In this document: positions 2,960-60,786 of the stretch, in pieces | Position numbering within the stretch: the stretch's first letter is position 1 | How the letters are laid out: the number at the start of each line of letters is the position of its first letter | Assembly (NCBI GenBank): GCA_964402895.1 | Contig: CAYODR010000001.1 | Location: forward strand, 53,641-117,640 | Reading direction: 5' to 3' | DNA: 64,000 nt | Origin: an uncultured Candidatus Saccharibacteria bacterium | Lineage (GTDB): Bacteria > Patescibacteriota > Minisyncoccia > Phycocordibacterales > UBA9973 | Program-made: the position numbers and the translations under genes | Notes under the pieces: model-generated | Database searches by the model: none | What the model saw: only the letters and a program-made list of their open reading frames with translations | What the model was told of the DNA's origin: nothing

Positions 2960-4147
2960 TTATTTTTTATTTCTTCTAAGAAATGCTGGAATAGCTCCCC
3001 AGTCTTCTTCATCTTCAATGATTTCTGGCTCAGAAGCAGTAGTGTCTTCTTTTACGGGTTCTATTTTCTTTACAAAAGGTTTAACTTCTGGTGCATTTTC
3101 CTTTTCTTCAGATAATCTATCTTGTTCGTTGCGAGAGTTGGTAAAGATTTGGTTGGCACTTTGTCCGAAGAGATTGTTTTTCTTTGAAAGTTCATTTGGA
3201 AAACCAGTAGCAATGACTGTGATTTTCATTTCACCTTTTTTCATTCTTTCATCTAAGATGGTACCAATGATTACGCGGGCATCTTTATCAATACTTTCCG
3301 TGATTACTTTGGCTGCGTCTTGAAACTCTGTCATTGTCAGATCATCGTTTGATGAGATTGCAAAGAGTACGCCACGAGCACCATTGATAGAAATATCTAG
3401 GAGAGGGGAATTGATAGCTTGAACAGCCGCTTTTTCTGCTCTGTCTTCACCGCTTGAGAATCCTACGCCCATAAGTGCAGTACCCGCATCTGTAAGTACG
3501 CTCTTCATATCAGCAAAGTCCACATTGATGATACCGGGAGATGCTATGAGTTCTGAGATACCTTCAACCGCTTGAAGAAGTACTTCATCACATTTTGCAA
3601 AAGCATCTTTAAATGTTGTGTCTTTTCCAGAGATTGCTAGTAAGCGGTCGTTTGGAATAATAATGATAGCGTCTACTTCTTTTTCAAGTTCTGCAATACC
3701 GCCCTCTGCGAGTCTCATTCTTTGATTGCCCTCAAAGAAGAAAGGTTTGGTTACAACTCCGACAGTAAGGATACCGGCTTCCTTTGCAGCTTTCGCAACA
3801 ACAGGTGCAGCTCCAGTACCAGTACCACCCCCCATACCACAAGCAATAAAAACCATATCAGCACCCTTGATGGCATCTTGGATTTCTGTTTTGGTTTCTT
3901 CGGCAGCGCGCATACCCATGTCAGGATTTCCTCCAGCCCCAAGACCTTTAGTCAAATTTTTACCTAAATGTATTTTTCTATCTGCAAGAGATTTGTGTAG
4001 GTCTTGCACATCTGTATTCATCGCAATGAATTCAACAGTACGAACTTTGTTGCTAATCATGTGATTGATAGCGTTTCCTCCTGAACCACCCACACCGATT
4101 ACCTTGATGCGTGCGGCAGTTTCTATATCTGGGCTTACTTTTGGCAT
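2960..4147 (-). CDS. ftsZ: cell division GTPase FtsZ
   Basis: GVGGSGGNAINHM and tubulin signature GMGGGTGTGAAPVVA. Confidence 0.95.
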   Translation of the reverse strand: MPKVSPDIETAARIKVIGVGGSGGNAINHMISNKVRTVEFIAMNTDVQDLHKSLADRKIHLGKNLTKGLGAGGNPDMGMRAAEETKTEIQDAIKGADMVFIACGMGGGTGTGAAPVVAKAAKEAGILTVGVVTKPFFFEGNQRMRLAEGGIAELEKEVDAIIIIPNDRLLAISGKDTTFKDAFAKCDEVLLQAVEGISELIASPGIINVDFADMKSVLTDAGTALMGVGFSSGEDRAEKAAVQAINSPLLDISINGARGVLFAISSNDDLTMTEFQDAAKVITESIDKDARVIIGTILDERMKKGEMKITVIATGFPNELSKKNNLFGQSANQIFTNSRNEQDRLSEEKENAPEVKPFVKKIEPVKEDTTASEPEIIEDEEDWGAIPAFLRRNKK

Positions 4148-16306: not shown

Positions 16307-16335
16307 AAAAATTCCCCACAAACTAAATTGCAGGG

Positions 16336-16382
16336 AATCATCATACGGCGGCGTATGATTAGGAATATTTTTTGTTTTTTAA
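16336..16382. terminator. bidirectional rho-independent terminator (uvrA / minus-strand small gene)
   Basis: Hairpin tcatacggcggcgtatga followed by a T-run on plus; a second hairpin attcccc…gggaat with a T-run on minus. Confidence 0.55.
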
Positions 16383-16550
16383 TTGGTAGTCAAAGAGAAA
16401 GACTCTCAGACCGATGACATACATCATGTATGTGAGGACTAATGCCACTATGGCACTATCCATGAATATTGAAATTATCGCAAATATCAAAATGGATAAC
16501 GGCGCTAATTCAATCGATAGCCTAAGGGCTAAGAATAGCAGAAATTTCAT
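16359..16550 (-). CDS. small hydrophobic membrane protein (~64 aa)
   Basis: MKFLLFLALRLSIELAPLSILIFAIISIFMD…; the internal Met is the likely start, since the track start at 16640 would overlap uvrC. Confidence 0.35.
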   Translation of the reverse strand: MKFLLFLALRLSIELAPLSILIFAIISIFMDSAIVALVLTYMMYVIGLRVFLFDYQLKNKKYS

Positions 16551-16597
16551 AACTTTATTAAATTGGTTAACTTCATTTATTATGATATCGTGAATAT

Positions 16598-17860
16598 ATG
16601 ATATGTCAAGACTTAAATAAAATAGATCTCCCAAACGCACCAGGTGTGTATTTTTGGCTTGGTAAGAAAGTGGATGCTGGCGGTATAAGTGGTAGAGAGA
16701 TACTTTATATTGGTAAAGCCACGAATTTGAAACAAAGAGTAAGGAGCTATTTTTCTGATGATTTGATCAATACTCGTGGTGCACATATTGTAGATATGGT
16801 TTTTAAGACGCAGGATATAACTTTTAGAGAGACAGATAGTGTACTTGAAGCTTTGATTCTAGAGGCTGAACTTATTAAAAAATATCAACCATACTACAAC
16901 AAACAAGAAAAGGATGATAAGAGTTTTAATTGTGTAGTCATTACCAAAGAAAACATCCCCAGAGTATTTTTAGTGCGCGAAAAAGATATAGACAAAAAAG
17001 AAAAGCAAGTGTATGTGACAAAAATAAGGCAGACTATCAAGTACGACACTATATATGGGCCATTCCCCAAAGGGAGTGCTATTCGTGAAGCTTTAAAAAT
17101 AATCAGAAGGATTTTCCCCTATGTAGATTTATCAAGTACAAAAAAAGATAGAAAAGAATTTTATAGACAAATAAAACTTGTACCGGATCTAGATACAGCT
17201 ATTGATATTGAAAATTATCAAAGAAATATCTCTAGTATAAAAATGATTTTTTCTGGAAAAATGAAAAAACTTCTTTCTACTCTTAAAAAAGAAATGAATA
17301 TTTTAGCTAAGGCAGAAAATTTTGAGGCCGCAGAAGATATCAAGAAAAAACTCTTTGCGCTTGAGCATATACAAGATGTGTCTTTGATTAAAAGAGAAAT
17401 CAATTATTTTGGAAATGATTTCTTTAGAATAGAAGCCTATGATGTGGCGCATACTTCTGGAAAAAATATGGTAGGGGCGATGGTTGTGGTAGAGAATGCT
17501 CAGTCTAATAAAAATGAATATCGTAAATTCAATATTAAAGGTTTTGATAAGGCCAATGATGCGGGAGCTTTAAAAGAAATGCTTACAAGAAGATTTACTC
17601 ATGTCCAGTGGAGATATCCAGATATGATTGTAGTAGACGGTAATCAAATACAAATGAATATTGCAAATGGTGTTTTAAAAGAAAATAATTTAAATATCCC
17701 TATTATAGCTGTCACCAAAGATGAAAGGCATAAACCAAAAAGTATAAGCGGAGATCAAAAACTTATAGAAAAATATAAATATGAAATCCTACTTGCAAAT
17801 AGTGAATCGCATAGGTTTGTCTTGAGTGAGCATAGAAAGAAAAGAGATAGTATTAGATAA
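16598..17860 (+). CDS. uvrC: excinuclease ABC subunit C, short form lacking C-terminal HhH domain
   Basis: GIY-YIG nuclease (GVYFW…ILYIGKATNLKQRVRSYF), UVR domain (FEAAEDIKKKLFALEHI), RNase H-like endonuclease domain; 420 aa with no (HhH)2 domain. Confidence 0.85.
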   Translation: MICQDLNKIDLPNAPGVYFWLGKKVDAGGISGREILYIGKATNLKQRVRSYFSDDLINTRGAHIVDMVFKTQDITFRETDSVLEALILEAELIKKYQPYYNKQEKDDKSFNCVVITKENIPRVFLVREKDIDKKEKQVYVTKIRQTIKYDTIYGPFPKGSAIREALKIIRRIFPYVDLSSTKKDRKEFYRQIKLVPDLDTAIDIENYQRNISSIKMIFSGKMKKLLSTLKKEMNILAKAENFEAAEDIKKKLFALEHIQDVSLIKREINYFGNDFFRIEAYDVAHTSGKNMVGAMVVVENAQSNKNEYRKFNIKGFDKANDAGALKEMLTRRFTHVQWRYPDMIVVDGNQIQMNIANGVLKENNLNIPIIAVTKDERHKPKSISGDQKLIEKYKYEILLANSESHRFVLSEHRKKRDSIR

Positions 17861-17905
17861 TTTATTTTTAAAAACCTTCAAAAATTTTAGATATCAATCA
17901 CTTCA

Positions 17906-18000
17906 AACAAAGCCTTTTTGCCGTCGGTGTATTTTTCTGAGGAAAAATCACCTGACTCTCGGACCAGTCGTCCTGCGAGACACGGCAAAAAGGCTTTGTT
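17906..18000 (+). ncRNA. candidate structured RNA / hairpin element 1 (18-bp perfect closing stem)
   Basis: AACAAAGCCTTTTTGCCG (17906-17923) pairs perfectly with CGGCAAAAAGGCTTTGTT (17983-18000). Inside are two nested sub-hairpins (ggtgtattttt/aaaaatcacc; ggac…gtcc within tctcg/cgaga). It is GC-rich relative to flanks and followed by TTTTCGTTCTT. Confidence 0.45.
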
Positions 18001-18036
18001 TTTCGTTCTTAAAATTTAAAAATACACAAAATGAAA

Positions 18037-18140
18037 AAACAAATATGTCTTTCTGGTGGGACTCGCGCAGCGCGACTGGTGCGAGCGTAGCAAAAACTCA
18101 GCAGAGTTTTATGCGTGCCCCCAGAAAGACATATTTGTTT
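18037..18140 (+). ncRNA. candidate structured RNA / hairpin element 2 (17-20-bp closing stem)
   Basis: CAAATATGTCTTTCTGG (18040-18056) pairs perfectly with CCAGAAAGACATATTTG (18121-18137). Internal hairpins ctcgc…gcgag and aaaactc-agcag-gagtttt; followed by TTTTGG. Confidence 0.45.
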
Positions 18141-18232
18141 TGGAATGGAGGACTTATCCGTGTCTAAAAATAGGAATGTATTTTGAAGCATATAGTGTTT
18201 GTTTGTAATAATATAAATGTTATAATAGTTTT

Positions 18233-19018
18233 ATGAAAAAATTAACCAACCTTTCAAAAAGTCTAATAGGAGGGTGCTATTCTAAAAAGAATCTCTCCGC
18301 TCTGAACAAATCCAAAGCTTTTACTTTGATTGAACTTCTTGTAGTAATAGCAATCATTGGAATATTAGCTACAGTGGTCATTGCATCTTTAAACTCAGCT
18401 CGCACTAAAGGAAGAGTAGCCGCTATTAAGTCCAATCTAAAGAATTTTCAGACTCAGGCAATAATGTACCATGCAGACAATGGGACTTTTGCTGGACTTT
18501 GTACATGGGTAGCACCATCTACTATTCAAACAGGTTATCATTCATCAGTTGAACCAATGATAGATGCTCTTAAGAATATTGCAGGAGATGAGAATGTACG
18601 CTGTGTTGTTCGTACTTCAAATGTTCCTAGTACTTCAGCTACACACTTTGTTGCAGCAGATGGACTTCAAGATAAAAATTTTGGTGTAGCAGTCTGGTTC
18701 AAAGGAAACCACTACGCTGTTGATGCTCAAAGCGTAATGACACTTGATTCTGCAAACAATGGTGCAGAAACAAACTGGGCTGAAGCAAATAATAGATGTG
18801 CTGCAGCAGGAAAGAGACTTCCCCCAATCGAAGTCTTTAAAGCCATATATGACTATAGTAGTACTGATGTAACTCAGTATGGGTTTGCAGCTAACCTTTG
18901 GTGGTCATCTACCCCTTCCGCTACCGAGTCCAGTATGGCTTATGCACAGAGTTTCACTAATGGTAATGTGAATAGGGGCGCTACTGTTCTTAACTTCCCC
19001 GTTCGTTGTGCCGCCTAG
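18233..19018 (+). CDS. type IV pilin-like protein (prepilin-type N-terminal methylation domain)
   Basis: A(F)TLIELLVVIAIIGILATVVIASL class III signal after an unusually long leader. C-terminal Cys pair (CAAAGK…VRCAA). TATAAT at 18213-18218 only ~15 nt before the ATG. Confidence 0.8.
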   Translation: MKKLTNLSKSLIGGCYSKKNLSALNKSKAFTLIELLVVIAIIGILATVVIASLNSARTKGRVAAIKSNLKNFQTQAIMYHADNGTFAGLCTWVAPSTIQTGYHSSVEPMIDALKNIAGDENVRCVVRTSNVPSTSATHFVAADGLQDKNFGVAVWFKGNHYAVDAQSVMTLDSANNGAETNWAEANNRCAAAGKRLPPIEVFKAIYDYSSTDVTQYGFAANLWWSSTPSATESSMAYAQSFTNGNVNRGATVLNFPVRCAA

Positions 19019-34440: not shown

Positions 34441-34490
34441 AATACTAAAACACCCTATAATATAGGGTGTTTTAGTATTGACTTTTTTCA
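34441..34490 (+). terminator. terminator: 19-bp perfect palindrome + T-run
   Basis: aatactaaaacaccctata / tatagggtgttttagtatt, then gacTTTTTTca. Confidence 0.7.
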
Positions 34491-39301: not shown

Positions 39302-40762
39302 ATGGCATCACTTGAAGAATTGCGCATTGAGCGTTTAAAAAAGAAAGAACTTTTAGAGCAATCTGGTATCAATCCATATCCTGCTCGGACGAATAGGTCT
39401 CATAGTATAGATTTATTTTTAGATAGATTTTCTCTTTATGAAAATGGTAAGGATGAAATAGTCTTGGCGGGAAGGCTTATGAGTAAGCGTGGGCAAGGAG
39501 GTATTTCTTTTTGTGATATTTATGATGGTACTGCTCGGGTTCAGGCATTTTTGAAATCAGATGAAATGATTGCTGGTCAATATGATTTGTTTATTGACAC
39601 TATTGATACAGGAGACTTTATTGAATTTACTGGTTATGCATATACAACTCAAAGAGGTGCTCAGAGTATTTTTGTAAAATCATGGAAAGTACTTTCTAAG
39701 TCTTTACTACCAATTCCTGATCAATGGTACGGATTAAAAGATGATGATGAGAGATATAGAAAAAGATATTTAGATATTCTGCAAAATACAGAATTAAAAG
39801 AAATTTTCGTTAAAAAAGCAAAATTCTGGCAATCAGTTCGTAATTTTTTGGTGGCAGAAAACTTTTTAGAAGTAGAAACTCCAACGCTTGAAGTGACGAC
39901 CGGTGGTGCTGAAGCTAGACCATTTAAGACATATCACAATGACTTTGACTTAGATGTATATCTTCGTATATCAGTAGGAGAGCTTTGGCAAAAGAGACTA
40001 TTGGCTGCTGGTTTTCCAAGAACATTTGAAATAGGGCGTGTATACAGAAATGAAGGCTCAAGTCCTGATCACTTGCAAGAATTCACAAATGTAGAATTCT
40101 ACGCAGCTTTTATGGACTACAATCAAGGTATAGATTTTACCGAAAGAATGATCAAACATGTAGTACAAGAAACTTTTGGTACACTTGCCTTTTCAAGTCG
40201 TGGACATGATTTTGATTTAAATGGTACATGGGAAAGGATTTCATATATAGATACGATTAAAAAAATGGCTGGTATAGATATCTTGTCTGCGACAGATGAT
40301 GAAATGAAATCTAAGCTTGATGAATTGAAAGTAAAATACGAAGGCGCAAATCGTGAAAGACTTACAGATACTCTTTGGAAATATTGTAGGAAACAAATCT
40401 CAGGACCAGTATGGCTTGTAGATGTACCAAAGATAGTATCGCCACTAGCTAAAGCAAAAGAAGATAATCCGCTTTTGACAGAGCGTGTGCAGTTGATTCT
40501 CGCTGGTGCTGAATGTACAAATGGATTCTCTGAGCTTAATGACCCTATAGATCAAGCAGAAAGATTTGGTGTACAAAAGAAATTGATTGAAGAAGGAGAC
40601 GATGAAGCTATGATGAGTGATGATGAATTTGTTGAAATGCTTGAGCATGGTATGCCACCAGCATTTGGATTTGGAGTGGGGGAGAGATTCTTTGCATTCC
40701 TTGTGGGCAAACCACTTCGCGAAACACAACTATTCCCACTACTTAAACCAAAACAAGATTAA
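39302..40762 (+). CDS. lysS: lysyl-tRNA synthetase (class II)
   Basis: OB-fold anticodon-binding domain then class II motifs (FLEVETPTL, GRVYRNEG, GFGVGERF); start taken at MASLEEL. Confidence 0.9.
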   Translation: MASLEELRIERLKKKELLEQSGINPYPARTNRSHSIDLFLDRFSLYENGKDEIVLAGRLMSKRGQGGISFCDIYDGTARVQAFLKSDEMIAGQYDLFIDTIDTGDFIEFTGYAYTTQRGAQSIFVKSWKVLSKSLLPIPDQWYGLKDDDERYRKRYLDILQNTELKEIFVKKAKFWQSVRNFLVAENFLEVETPTLEVTTGGAEARPFKTYHNDFDLDVYLRISVGELWQKRLLAAGFPRTFEIGRVYRNEGSSPDHLQEFTNVEFYAAFMDYNQGIDFTERMIKHVVQETFGTLAFSSRGHDFDLNGTWERISYIDTIKKMAGIDILSATDDEMKSKLDELKVKYEGANRERLTDTLWKYCRKQISGPVWLVDVPKIVSPLAKAKEDNPLLTERVQLILAGAECTNGFSELNDPIDQAERFGVQKKLIEEGDDEAMMSDDEFVEMLEHGMPPAFGFGVGERFFAFLVGKPLRETQLFPLLKPKQD

Positions 40763-40765
40763 ATT

Positions 40766-40800
40766 AAAAAATACCCCTAAATTATTTAGGGGTATTTTTA
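40766..40800. terminator. bidirectional terminator (lysS/cysS)
   Basis: aaaaatacccctaaat-t-atttaggggtattttt: 12-bp palindrome flanked by A/T runs. Confidence 0.75.
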
Positions 40801-40810
40801 TATTTTTTTC

Positions 40811-49272: not shown

Positions 49273-50691
49273 ATGGAAAGAATATATATAAAAGATTTAA
49301 ATACAAAAAAAGGAGAAGAAATCCTTATTAAAGGTTGGGTGGACGTACGCAGAGATCAGGGGAAAATGGTTTTCTTTGATTTTAGAGATATGTCTGGGTA
49401 TATACAAGGTGTTGTACTTCCTAATAGACCTGAAGTCATTGAAGTAGCTAAAAATACACGCCCTGAAAGTGTGGTCGCTGTACACGGTATCGTAAATCAA
49501 AGACCAGAAAGAAATGTACAAGCCGATAAACAAAATGGTGATATTGAACTTGAAATCACTGGTATTGAAATACTGAACCACGCAGAACCGCTTCCTTTTG
49601 AAATCAATGTAGACACAAAAGAAGTAAATGAAGAAGTTCGACTTAAGCATAGATATCTAGACTTAAGAAGTGAGAGAATGCAAAAAAATATCAGAGCAAG
49701 AGCATCTATCGTTCATCATATTCGTAATTTTTTGCATGAAAATAAATTCATTGAAATAGAAACTCCTATCCTAACAAAAAGTACGCCTGAAGGCGCTCGC
49801 GACTATATCGTACCTAGTCGTATTTATCCTGGTAATTTCTATGCACTCCCACAATCACCTCAACAATATAAACAACTTTTGATGACTGGTGGTATGGAAA
49901 GATATTTCCAAGTAGCTAGATGTATGCGCGATGAAGATACTCGCGGTGATAGACAACCAGAATTCACTCAACTAGATATGGAAATGAGCTTTGTCCAAAG
50001 AGAAGATGTGATGCAAATGAATGAAGAGCTTTTGATAAGTATCGTCAAAACTTTTTATCCTGAAAAGAAAATCCAACAAATCCCTTTTCCAAGACTTTCA
50101 TATAAAGAAGCGATGGAAAAATATGGATCAGATAGACCAGATATCAGAGAAGATAAAAATGATCCAAATTTACTAGCATTTTGTTGGGTGATAGATTTTC
50201 CTTTCTTTGAAAAAACTGATAAAAGTGATAATCCTGATGGAGAAGGAGAGTGGACATATACACACAACCCATTTTCAAAACCAGTAAACGAACATATGCA
50301 AAATCTACTTGAGAAAAAAGATATAGGAGATATCTTAACAACTCAATATGATATTTGTTTAAATGGATATGAAATAGGCGGGGGGTCAATTAGAAATCAT
50401 AGTTATGAAGCATTGATGAAAGTATTTGAAATCCTAGGACATAAACAAGATAAGATAGAATCAGAGTTTGGGCACATGCTAAATGCTTTCAGGCTTGGTA
50501 CACCACCACACGGGGGTATTGCATGGGGATTAGATAGGTTTGTGATGCTAATGCAAAATGAACCAAATATCAGAGAGGTGATAGCCTTCCCAAAAACAGG
50601 TGAAGGCAAAGACCCGATGATGAATGCTCCTGCTAAAGTATCAGACAAACAACTGGCAGAACTTCAAATAGCTTTGAAAATAAAAGAGTAA
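49273..50691 (+). CDS. aspS: aspartyl-tRNA synthetase
   Basis: OB-fold N-domain, class II motifs (FQVARCMRDEDTRGDRQPEFTQLD, GGGSIR, GLDRFVM); ATG at 49273 (the track start at 49252 is TTG). Confidence 0.9.
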   Translation: MERIYIKDLNTKKGEEILIKGWVDVRRDQGKMVFFDFRDMSGYIQGVVLPNRPEVIEVAKNTRPESVVAVHGIVNQRPERNVQADKQNGDIELEITGIEILNHAEPLPFEINVDTKEVNEEVRLKHRYLDLRSERMQKNIRARASIVHHIRNFLHENKFIEIETPILTKSTPEGARDYIVPSRIYPGNFYALPQSPQQYKQLLMTGGMERYFQVARCMRDEDTRGDRQPEFTQLDMEMSFVQREDVMQMNEELLISIVKTFYPEKKIQQIPFPRLSYKEAMEKYGSDRPDIREDKNDPNLLAFCWVIDFPFFEKTDKSDNPDGEGEWTYTHNPFSKPVNEHMQNLLEKKDIGDILTTQYDICLNGYEIGGGSIRNHSYEALMKVFEILGHKQDKIESEFGHMLNAFRLGTPPHGGIAWGLDRFVMLMQNEPNIREVIAFPKTGEGKDPMMNAPAKVSDKQLAELQIALKIKE

Positions 50692-50697
50692 ATAATA

Positions 50698-50730
50698 AAA
50701 ACAGCTACATTGTAGCTGTTTTTATTATTC
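50698..50730. terminator. bidirectional terminator (aspS/rmuC)
   Basis: aaaacagctaca-ttg-tagctgtttt. Confidence 0.65.
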
Positions 50731-60707: not shown

Positions 60708-60786
60708 CTAGAATGAACAAAAGACACTTATTTCAAAGTGTCTTTTGTTTTGATTTTATAAAAAATGTGATTATATCTCCGATCTT

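Follow-up and report, generated by a model that had tools for sequence, protein, structure and literature searches.

In the 64,000-nt stretch of DNA that was analysed here, called the window throughout, uvrC (16598-17860) is followed by a 372-bp spacer, a type IV pilin-like gene (18233-19018) and then mnmA, with uvrB and uvrA lying upstream of uvrC. The uvrC-pilin spacer holds two strongly folded elements, E1 and E2, and the question raised by this locus is what they are. A preliminary description of this DNA offered three options: stable small RNAs, structured terminators or insulators, and remnants of miniature mobile inverted repeats. The last of these is favoured by our results and the first is disfavoured, and a role at transcript ends is possible as a secondary effect. 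Taking into account the evidence set out below, we give a probability of about 0.6 to the reading in which E1 and E2 form a convergent pair of two diverged members of a new family of Y-shaped palindromic repeats of Paceibacteria (CPR/Patescibacteria) chromosomes. As regards the host of the window, its UvrC homologues are named Minisyncoccia or Candidatus Paceibacterota.

Some features of the surroundings of the spacer were also recorded. The pilin-like protein has an N-terminal methylation motif and a weak match to the Lcl C-terminal domain, and the N-terminus and promoter of its gene are conserved in the relative L199. The 290-bp gap between uvrA and uvrC (16307-16597) contains a 59-aa ORF (16414-16593), which is also called in the Logan contig, and relatives carry one to three additional genes between uvrA and uvrC. 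Two ORFs, of 113 aa (17826-18167, + strand) and 60 aa (18009-18191, - strand), cross E1/E2; both are artefacts of the GC-rich palindromes and not genes.

The two Y-shaped elements of the preliminary description were borne out in coordinates and anatomy, with perfect closing stems of 20 bp in E1 and 21 bp in E2 (Table 1); in E2 the perfect stem is followed by two single-base bulges and then by 5 more pairs. E1 is co-oriented with uvrC and begins 44 nt past its stop codon. Hairpin B of E1 has the conserved C(A)GUC loop and an internal loop UCG / CUSC, and the apical stem of hairpin B in E2 (GCAC/GCGC) is that of the other subtype. When E1 on the + strand was compared with E2 on the - strand, 75% identity was found and the parts followed in the same order (closing stem, hairpin A, hairpin B, closing stem), so that one element is present here twice, in inverted copies, a homology in opposite orientation that the preliminary description had missed. 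Common to both are the A/U-rich stem and UC-UGNN-GA tip of hairpin A and the CUCG-GNAC-CAGUC-GNNC-U-GCG of hairpin B; their closing stems differ in sequence and each is still complementary. A U-tract had been reported after each element, and this is correct for E1, which has a T-run after its stem on the + strand, but not for E2, whose T-run is on the - strand, as fits its inverted orientation.

Table 1. Features of E1, E2 and their surroundings (positions in the window), and of the module nested in other copies (positions in the contigs named).
Feature	Position	Strand	Basis or remark
E1, complete Y-shaped palindromic copy, "forward"	17905..18001	+	sequence, folds, covariance model R1
E1 closing stem, 5' arm, AAACAAAGCCTTTTTGCCGT	17905..17924	+	perfect 20-bp complement of 17982-18001
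E1 hairpin A, A/U-rich stem with one bulge, UC-UGAG-GA tip, loop UGAG	17926..17952	+	
E1 hairpin B, CUCG / GGAC-CAGUC-GUCC / U / GCGAG, loop CAGUC	17956..17979	+	
E1 closing stem, 3' arm, then TTCGTTCTT	17982..18001	+	
A/T-rich spacer between E1 and E2	18002..18035		
E2, second family copy, inverted	18036..18141	-	alignment with E1, covariance model R1, folds
E2 closing stem, first arm	18036..18056		perfect 21 bp with 18121-18141
E2 hairpin B, - strand reading CGCUCGCACCAGUCGCGCUGCGCGAG	18062..18087	-	
E2 hairpin A, - strand reading GCAUAAAACUC-UGCU-GAGUUUUUGC	18090..18114	-	
E2 closing stem, second arm	18121..18141		
Block in the window, missing from the closest relative L199	approx. 17885..18185		fuzzy boundaries
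Nested copies of the 51-nt module	L145:393-521, L186:559-688, L192 about 3210-3296		

The RNA folds of E1 and E2 had z = -6.9 to -9.6 on either strand, with 0 of 200 shuffles as stable, and the folds as single-stranded DNA had z = -7.8 to -9.7. They are the two longest short-range inverted repeats within the 64 kb of the window, and the GC content of their cores is 51-57% versus about 34% in the window. Five native gene-end palindromes were available for comparison (2913-2964, 34441-34479, 40761-40805, 50691-50729, and 60716-60749). These are perfect A-tract/T-tract palindromes with arms of 14-23 bp and tips of 1-6 nt, located 3' of stop codons or of a tRNA, and they probably act as bidirectional terminators. 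E1 and E2 are like them in being long perfect A-tract/T-tract palindromes past stop codons, and since arms of 19-23 bp, as in the first four of these, are usual in the window and equal the E1/E2 closing stems in length, the oddity of E1 and E2 is their tip and not their stem. The earlier statement that they have more structure than a terminator needs was thus too strong as far as the length of the stem is concerned. The native tips have no conserved sequence, whereas E1 and E2 carry a conserved tip of 60 nt with two hairpins. A simple terminator scan called nothing at E1/E2 because the loop is longer than 8 nt.

The elements matched no known RNA family, in agreement with the judgement made by eye in the preliminary description. 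Rfam at the gathering threshold gave two tRNAs only in the window; over 17800-18300 at E<=10 the best match had 24 bits against a cut-off of 49 and all matches were at chance level; and in the element-rich loci only RNase P RNA and tRNAs were obtained. Hammerhead (CUGANGA/GAAA at the junction), twister, and pistol cores were looked for by eye and with Rfam at E<=10, and none was present. In the literature we did not find such elements described in CPR bacteria.

Relatives of E1 and E2 were found by pattern and by model. A 15-base pattern over genome contigs gave one genuine relative (L111), about 119 of its 120 loci being chance matches in high-GC genomes. A 21-base two-part pattern over metagenome contigs gave 67 loci, of which about 33, in low-GC contigs, were genuine, and the remaining ones were chance matches in high-GC genomes, in rpoB among other genes. 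Over viral contigs two patterns gave chance matches or nothing, with no sign of a phage origin. The covariance model R1 covers the inner module only, since MAFFT was unable to align the variable closing stems, which were handled by a separate script. R1 found 52 copies, 46 of them distinct, with 30-88 bits at about 25 non-redundant low-GC loci, and nothing in 1.2 Mb of unrelated control loci. In the window it matched E2 (18050-18128, - strand, 77.3 bits) and E1 (17913-17993, 70.5 bits, E about 2e-15), all else being at or below 12 bits. Multiple copies, which the preliminary description had expected of a mobile inverted repeat, were thus obtained, though not through the stems in which it had sought the recurring part: the closing-stem sequence does not recur and the inner module is conserved, so that the stems would have been useless as BLASTN queries. 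The element-rich contigs have their nearest relatives in Candidatus Yanofskybacteria, and in some lineages the density is about one copy per 1-3 kb. Short-read contigs of this genome and of a related one stop shortly past uvrC: the Logan contig of the window, L198, ends at ~17926, within the 5' arm of E1, and L200 and L201 end about 95 bp past uvrC. The palindromic repeats seem to break such assemblies. A reading as DNA uptake sequences was rejected, considering that there are only two copies in the 64 kb window and that the conservation is structural.

A family copy has about 100-135 bp (97-135) and consists of a closing stem of 20.5 bp (median) topped by a conserved two-hairpin tip of ~60 nt. 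Subtype-2 copies very often have a closing stem of exactly 19 bp. This 19-bp stem is often continued outwards by a small internal loop of pyrimidines (CTC/TC, TGC/TTC; L192:4390-4470, L150:3404-3484, and L190:7832-7912) and, beyond it, by a further helix of 5-7 bp, and the full element may have ~135 bp with a middle stem of fixed length. In the family consensus hairpin A has a Y-URCU-R tetraloop and a conserved bulged U. The apical stem of hairpin B occurs as GGAC/GUCC, GCAC/GUGC, GCGC/GCGC, and GCCU/AGGC, and its C(A)GUC loop is constant.

Each of the 52 copies lies between genes. Lone copies and the first members of pairs lie 12-60 nt 3' of the stop of a co-oriented gene, and 11 of the lone copies between genes of the same direction are co-oriented with them against 2 that are anti-oriented. 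There are 11-12 pairs, all convergent (forward, then reverse) and all between genes of the same direction, as in the window; the members are 13-32 nt apart, stem to stem, and in most pairs they belong to two different subtypes, either of which may come first. The genes flanking the copies or lying between them are housekeeping genes (polA, fpg, holA, tsaE, ftsZ, and RF-1). In L131 the RNase P RNA gene (177-500, 114 bits) is directly followed by a convergent pair (566-768). The orientation of the copies follows the local direction of the genes even where this direction flips within the contig L192, which points to a constraint at the level of transcription. In some contigs the copies are arrayed at a spacing of 1-1.5 kb with mixed orientations.

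The alternative that survives best is a cis-acting structured RNA at the 3' ends of transcripts, either a "decorated terminator" or a signal for stability or processing. A protein would bind the tetraloop, the pentaloop, and the bulged U, the long stem would block 3' exonucleases or RNA polymerase, and the copies would come from duplication or recruitment and be retained by selection on the RNA. In its favour are the place of the forward copies just past co-oriented stops, and of one after the RNase P RNA gene, the agreement of their orientation with that of the genes, the T-run that E1 and E2 each have on their own strand, and the resemblance of the closing stems to the native terminator palindromes. 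The strong covariation described below and the conserved loops and bulge also speak for it. Nevertheless, the 10 nt after the stem contain a mean of 4.1 T and reach 6 T or more in only 10 of 51 copies, so that the terminator role is putative; most family members elsewhere have no U-tract, unlike the native terminators. It also counts against this alternative that every pair has a second copy which runs antisense to the genes on either side. Together with the changes in the pairs and the rearrangements considered next, this makes it an unlikely explanation, although one to be taken seriously.

The covariation asked for in the preliminary description was strong across the family copies. Changes on both sides were seen in 15 of the 18 inner pairs (210 cells) and, within these helices, in 7/7 pairs of hairpin A. 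The proportion of paired cells was 94.6%, versus 68% in shuffled and 32-54% in slid controls. Selection at the level of RNA normally tolerates G-U far more than A-C. The closing stems had 998 Watson-Crick, 15 G-U, 24 A-C, and 27 other pairs and the inner helices 767 Watson-Crick, 10 G-U, and 17 A-C, which makes 25 G-U versus 41 A-C over about 1,850 pair cells, and no excess of G-U was present on either strand in closing stems or inner helices. Only 4 one-sided (wobble) changes were counted versus 210 two-sided ones, the signature expected of pairing at the level of DNA and not of RNA only. RNAfold preferred the reverse strand in 46 of 52 copies. This preference is due to loop and mismatch terms and the G-U and A-C counts are indecisive in this respect, so no strand is assigned by energetics.

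Closing stems are very different among the copies of a single genome, and in related strains even copies at one site differ, but the arms remain perfectly complementary and often have exactly 19 bp. Simple copying and decay does not explain this. In the orthologous copies of L179 and L208, 2 changes were compensated and 3 were uncompensated. The upkeep of the stems needs strong selection for pairing, correction of one arm by the other while the hairpin is extruded or single-stranded, or a frequent exchange of copies for other members of the family.

The comparison of orthologous sites indicated that the copies behave as inserted DNA. In L199, the closest relative (UvrC 90% identical), the synteny of uvrC and the pilin gene and the pilin promoter are kept, and the spacer from the uvrC stop to the pilin ATG has 73 bp without any element; in the window the end of uvrC is separated from the pilin promoter by a block of ~300 bp that contains both copies. 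Since the L199 site has no palindrome, the insertion of the module into the loop of an older terminator was rejected for this locus. A second case is found between polA and fpg. The polA stop is separated from the fpg ATG by a pair of about 245 bp in L179 and L208, where this ATG is 10 nt beyond the second copy. In the Yanofskybacteria relative represented by L205-L207, the gene order tsaE-polA-fpg-DUF3048-holA is uninterrupted, with 1 nt between the polA stop and the fpg start, and 52 kb contain no element; other relatives had no copies in 35 kb. A strong terminator would be harmful between genes that are translationally coupled in relatives, and this, as well as the lack of the elements in close relatives, argues against the 3'-end RNA.

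The copies have also been rearranged. Cores of 81 nt recur without any difference at 5 or more unrelated loci, and one contig has two of these. The spacers within the pairs are unrelated though the cores are identical, so the pair was not copied as one unit and its transposition as a single unit was rejected. In three copies (Table 1) the CUCG of hairpin B is followed by the same nested hairpin module of 51 nt, AAAGCGATTCTAGTCGGGCTAAAGCACCGACTAAGAAACTTCGCTTAGA, and other copies (L150:2134-2236) have a perfect 20-bp GC palindrome, CCTGCCTGCCGGCAGGCAGG, nested in hairpin A; both are possibly smaller mobile palindromes with the element as their target. One copy is truncated in L177. In the related contigs L150 (2100-2400) and L192 (3000-3420) the entire pair block has opposite orientations between a conserved upstream gene end and a conserved downstream promoter. 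Mobile DNA accounts better than a 3'-end RNA for the identical cores at unrelated places, the nested modules, and the inversion of a block. No target-site duplication or direct repeat was found in the flanks of about 50 copies, which show only a pyrimidine-rich tendency (YTC/TYC) and no conserved target motif. In summary, the family is real, multi-copy, intergenic, strongly covarying, and patchy among relatives, and it acts as inserted and rearranging DNA.

A key aspect of the repeat-family reading is the enzyme that would move the copies. A Pfam scan of 145 flanking ORFs gave no linked transposase, recombinase, or integrase and no enriched mobile-element gene, a Y1-transposase HMM had no match over all gathered loci, and no Y1_Tnp domain was present in 20 small ORFs of the window. 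The contig ENA ERZ1426577 (P0007) carries, between uvrA and a polyprenyl synthase gene, the gene of a solitary 216-aa PF01797 Y1_Tnp protein, which we take to be a transposase of the IS200/RAYT type. Its host is a relative whose UvrC is 61% identical. Taking into account the pairing by Watson-Crick pairs only, the conserved loops and extrahelical base, and the Y1_Tnp gene of this relative, we infer that the copies probably propagate as folded single-stranded DNA and that a solitary HUH/Y1 transposase (RAYT/IS200-like) would be the best candidate class of mobilising enzyme. Such an enzyme, acting in trans, would identify a copy by its conserved loops and bulged base. Once inserted, a forward copy would probably form the 3' end of the upstream transcript, where its hairpin could serve as a barrier at the end of the transcript, as a terminator, or as an insulator, and a role of this kind would explain the bias in orientation. 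From this bias it seems that copies, once inserted, are either sorted by their effect on transcripts or put to use for it.

A bolder form of the repeat-family reading, which we hold to be rather improbable, would make of it a new class of bacterial mobile DNA: a branched single-stranded hairpin like the parvovirus ITRs, whose arms would be kept complementary by hairpin-templated copying or correction and not by ordinary selection. Its loops and bulge would be read by a dedicated HUH or other recombinase, and it would have spread in streamlined CPR chromosomes, even between coupled genes.

Far less credit can be given to two independent small-RNA genes of a multi-copy family, each with its own promoter. 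GC-rich and highly structured islands in an AT-rich genome and a conserved covarying family would be consistent with them. On the other hand, there is no room for promoters in copies placed 12-60 nt past stops and in pairs whose members are 13-32 nt apart, no promoter-like site was seen to precede E1 or E2 on the strand in question, neither a G-U signature nor an Rfam match was found, and the pair is dispensable in L199. E1 and E2 are not a dedicated regulatory RNA of uvrC or of the pilin gene. Sites of a site-specific recombinase, with the folded strand as substrate, at attC-like cassette boundaries or around an invertible segment, are hardly credible either: the inversion of the pair block between L150 and L192, the attC-like conservation of structure with variable stems and an extrahelical base, and the arrays at 1-1.5 kb spacing recall them, but the intervening genes are core housekeeping genes and not cassettes, the orientations are mixed and not uniform, no R''(RYYYAAC)/R'(GTTRRRY) boxes of attC are present at the stem ends of E1/E2, and no integrase was seen among the flanking ORFs.

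The genomes of CPR/Patescibacteria are held to be extremely streamlined, with few repeats. A family of structured repeats is therefore unexpected in them, and this one splits genes that are contiguous elsewhere. Its main interest lies in the strong covariation without G-U pairs, the branched architecture, and the spread in genomes that are supposedly repeat-poor. The family would be a pitfall in scans for non-coding RNA, since it covaries strongly and is not an RNA gene. It offers a defined substrate for finding a new enzyme that recognises DNA hairpins and a case in which to study how the arms of a palindrome stay complementary during rapid change of sequence.

By comparison with known systems, the likeness to substrates of HUH enzymes and tyrosine recombinases is one of form only; the elements of the family are chromosomal and interspersed. 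In integron attC sites the structure is conserved, the stem sequence is variable, and there is an extrahelical base. The same preference for structure over sequence, with an extrahelical base, is shared by the end hairpins of IS200/IS605 and by the parvovirus ITRs. With the AAV ITRs the family has in common the T- or Y-shaped branching, two small palindromes within a long one, and the occurrence of both "flip" and "flop". As noted above, mixed orientations, housekeeping genes between the copies, and the lack of an integrase among the flanking ORFs set it apart from attC.

The resemblance to MITEs (Correia of Neisseria, ERIC/IRU, RUP, and BOX) is closer. Like them, the elements are non-coding, have ~100-150 bp, inverted termini, and stable hairpins. 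Insertion between genes, co-transcription with the neighbours, and presence/absence polymorphism between strains are features of MITEs, and this polymorphism is seen here at orthologous sites, in the window versus L199 and, at polA-fpg, in L179/L208 versus L205-L207. Unlike MITEs, the family has variable termini and an interior that is a conserved, covarying module of two hairpins, with no target-site duplication, and no parent IS with the same ends was found.

The REP, BIME, and REPIN elements of Enterobacteria and Pseudomonas are mobilised by RAYT Y1 transposases; the REP unit is an imperfect palindrome of 20-40 nt with a conserved 5' GTAG-like head, and the cognate RAYT is a single-copy gene that is typically flanked by REP repeats (PMC3116915, PMC3337134). 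The present family differs from REP in its unit, a three-way junction of 100-135 bp with conserved loops, in the absence of a GTAG-type head from the family alignments, in its widely varying stem sequences and non-conserved pair spacers, and in its host, a CPR bacterium; no RAYT flanked by copies was found among the gathered loci and the tested ORFs of the window. It is like REP and BIME in being formed by extragenic, multi-copy palindromes located just past genes and inside operons, in the inverted doublets with a short spacer that occur alongside singlets, in the lack of target-site duplications, and in the patchy, lineage-specific spread; a solitary Y1 transposase gene, a candidate counterpart of RAYT, is present in a relative. 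BIMEs join two REP subtypes in inverted order, which can be compared with the heterotypic pairs described here. The family is thus neither a full REP system nor a classical MITE, and the best reading is that of a previously undescribed family of REP/BIME/MITE-like repeats, closer to REP/BIME than to a dedicated small-RNA gene.
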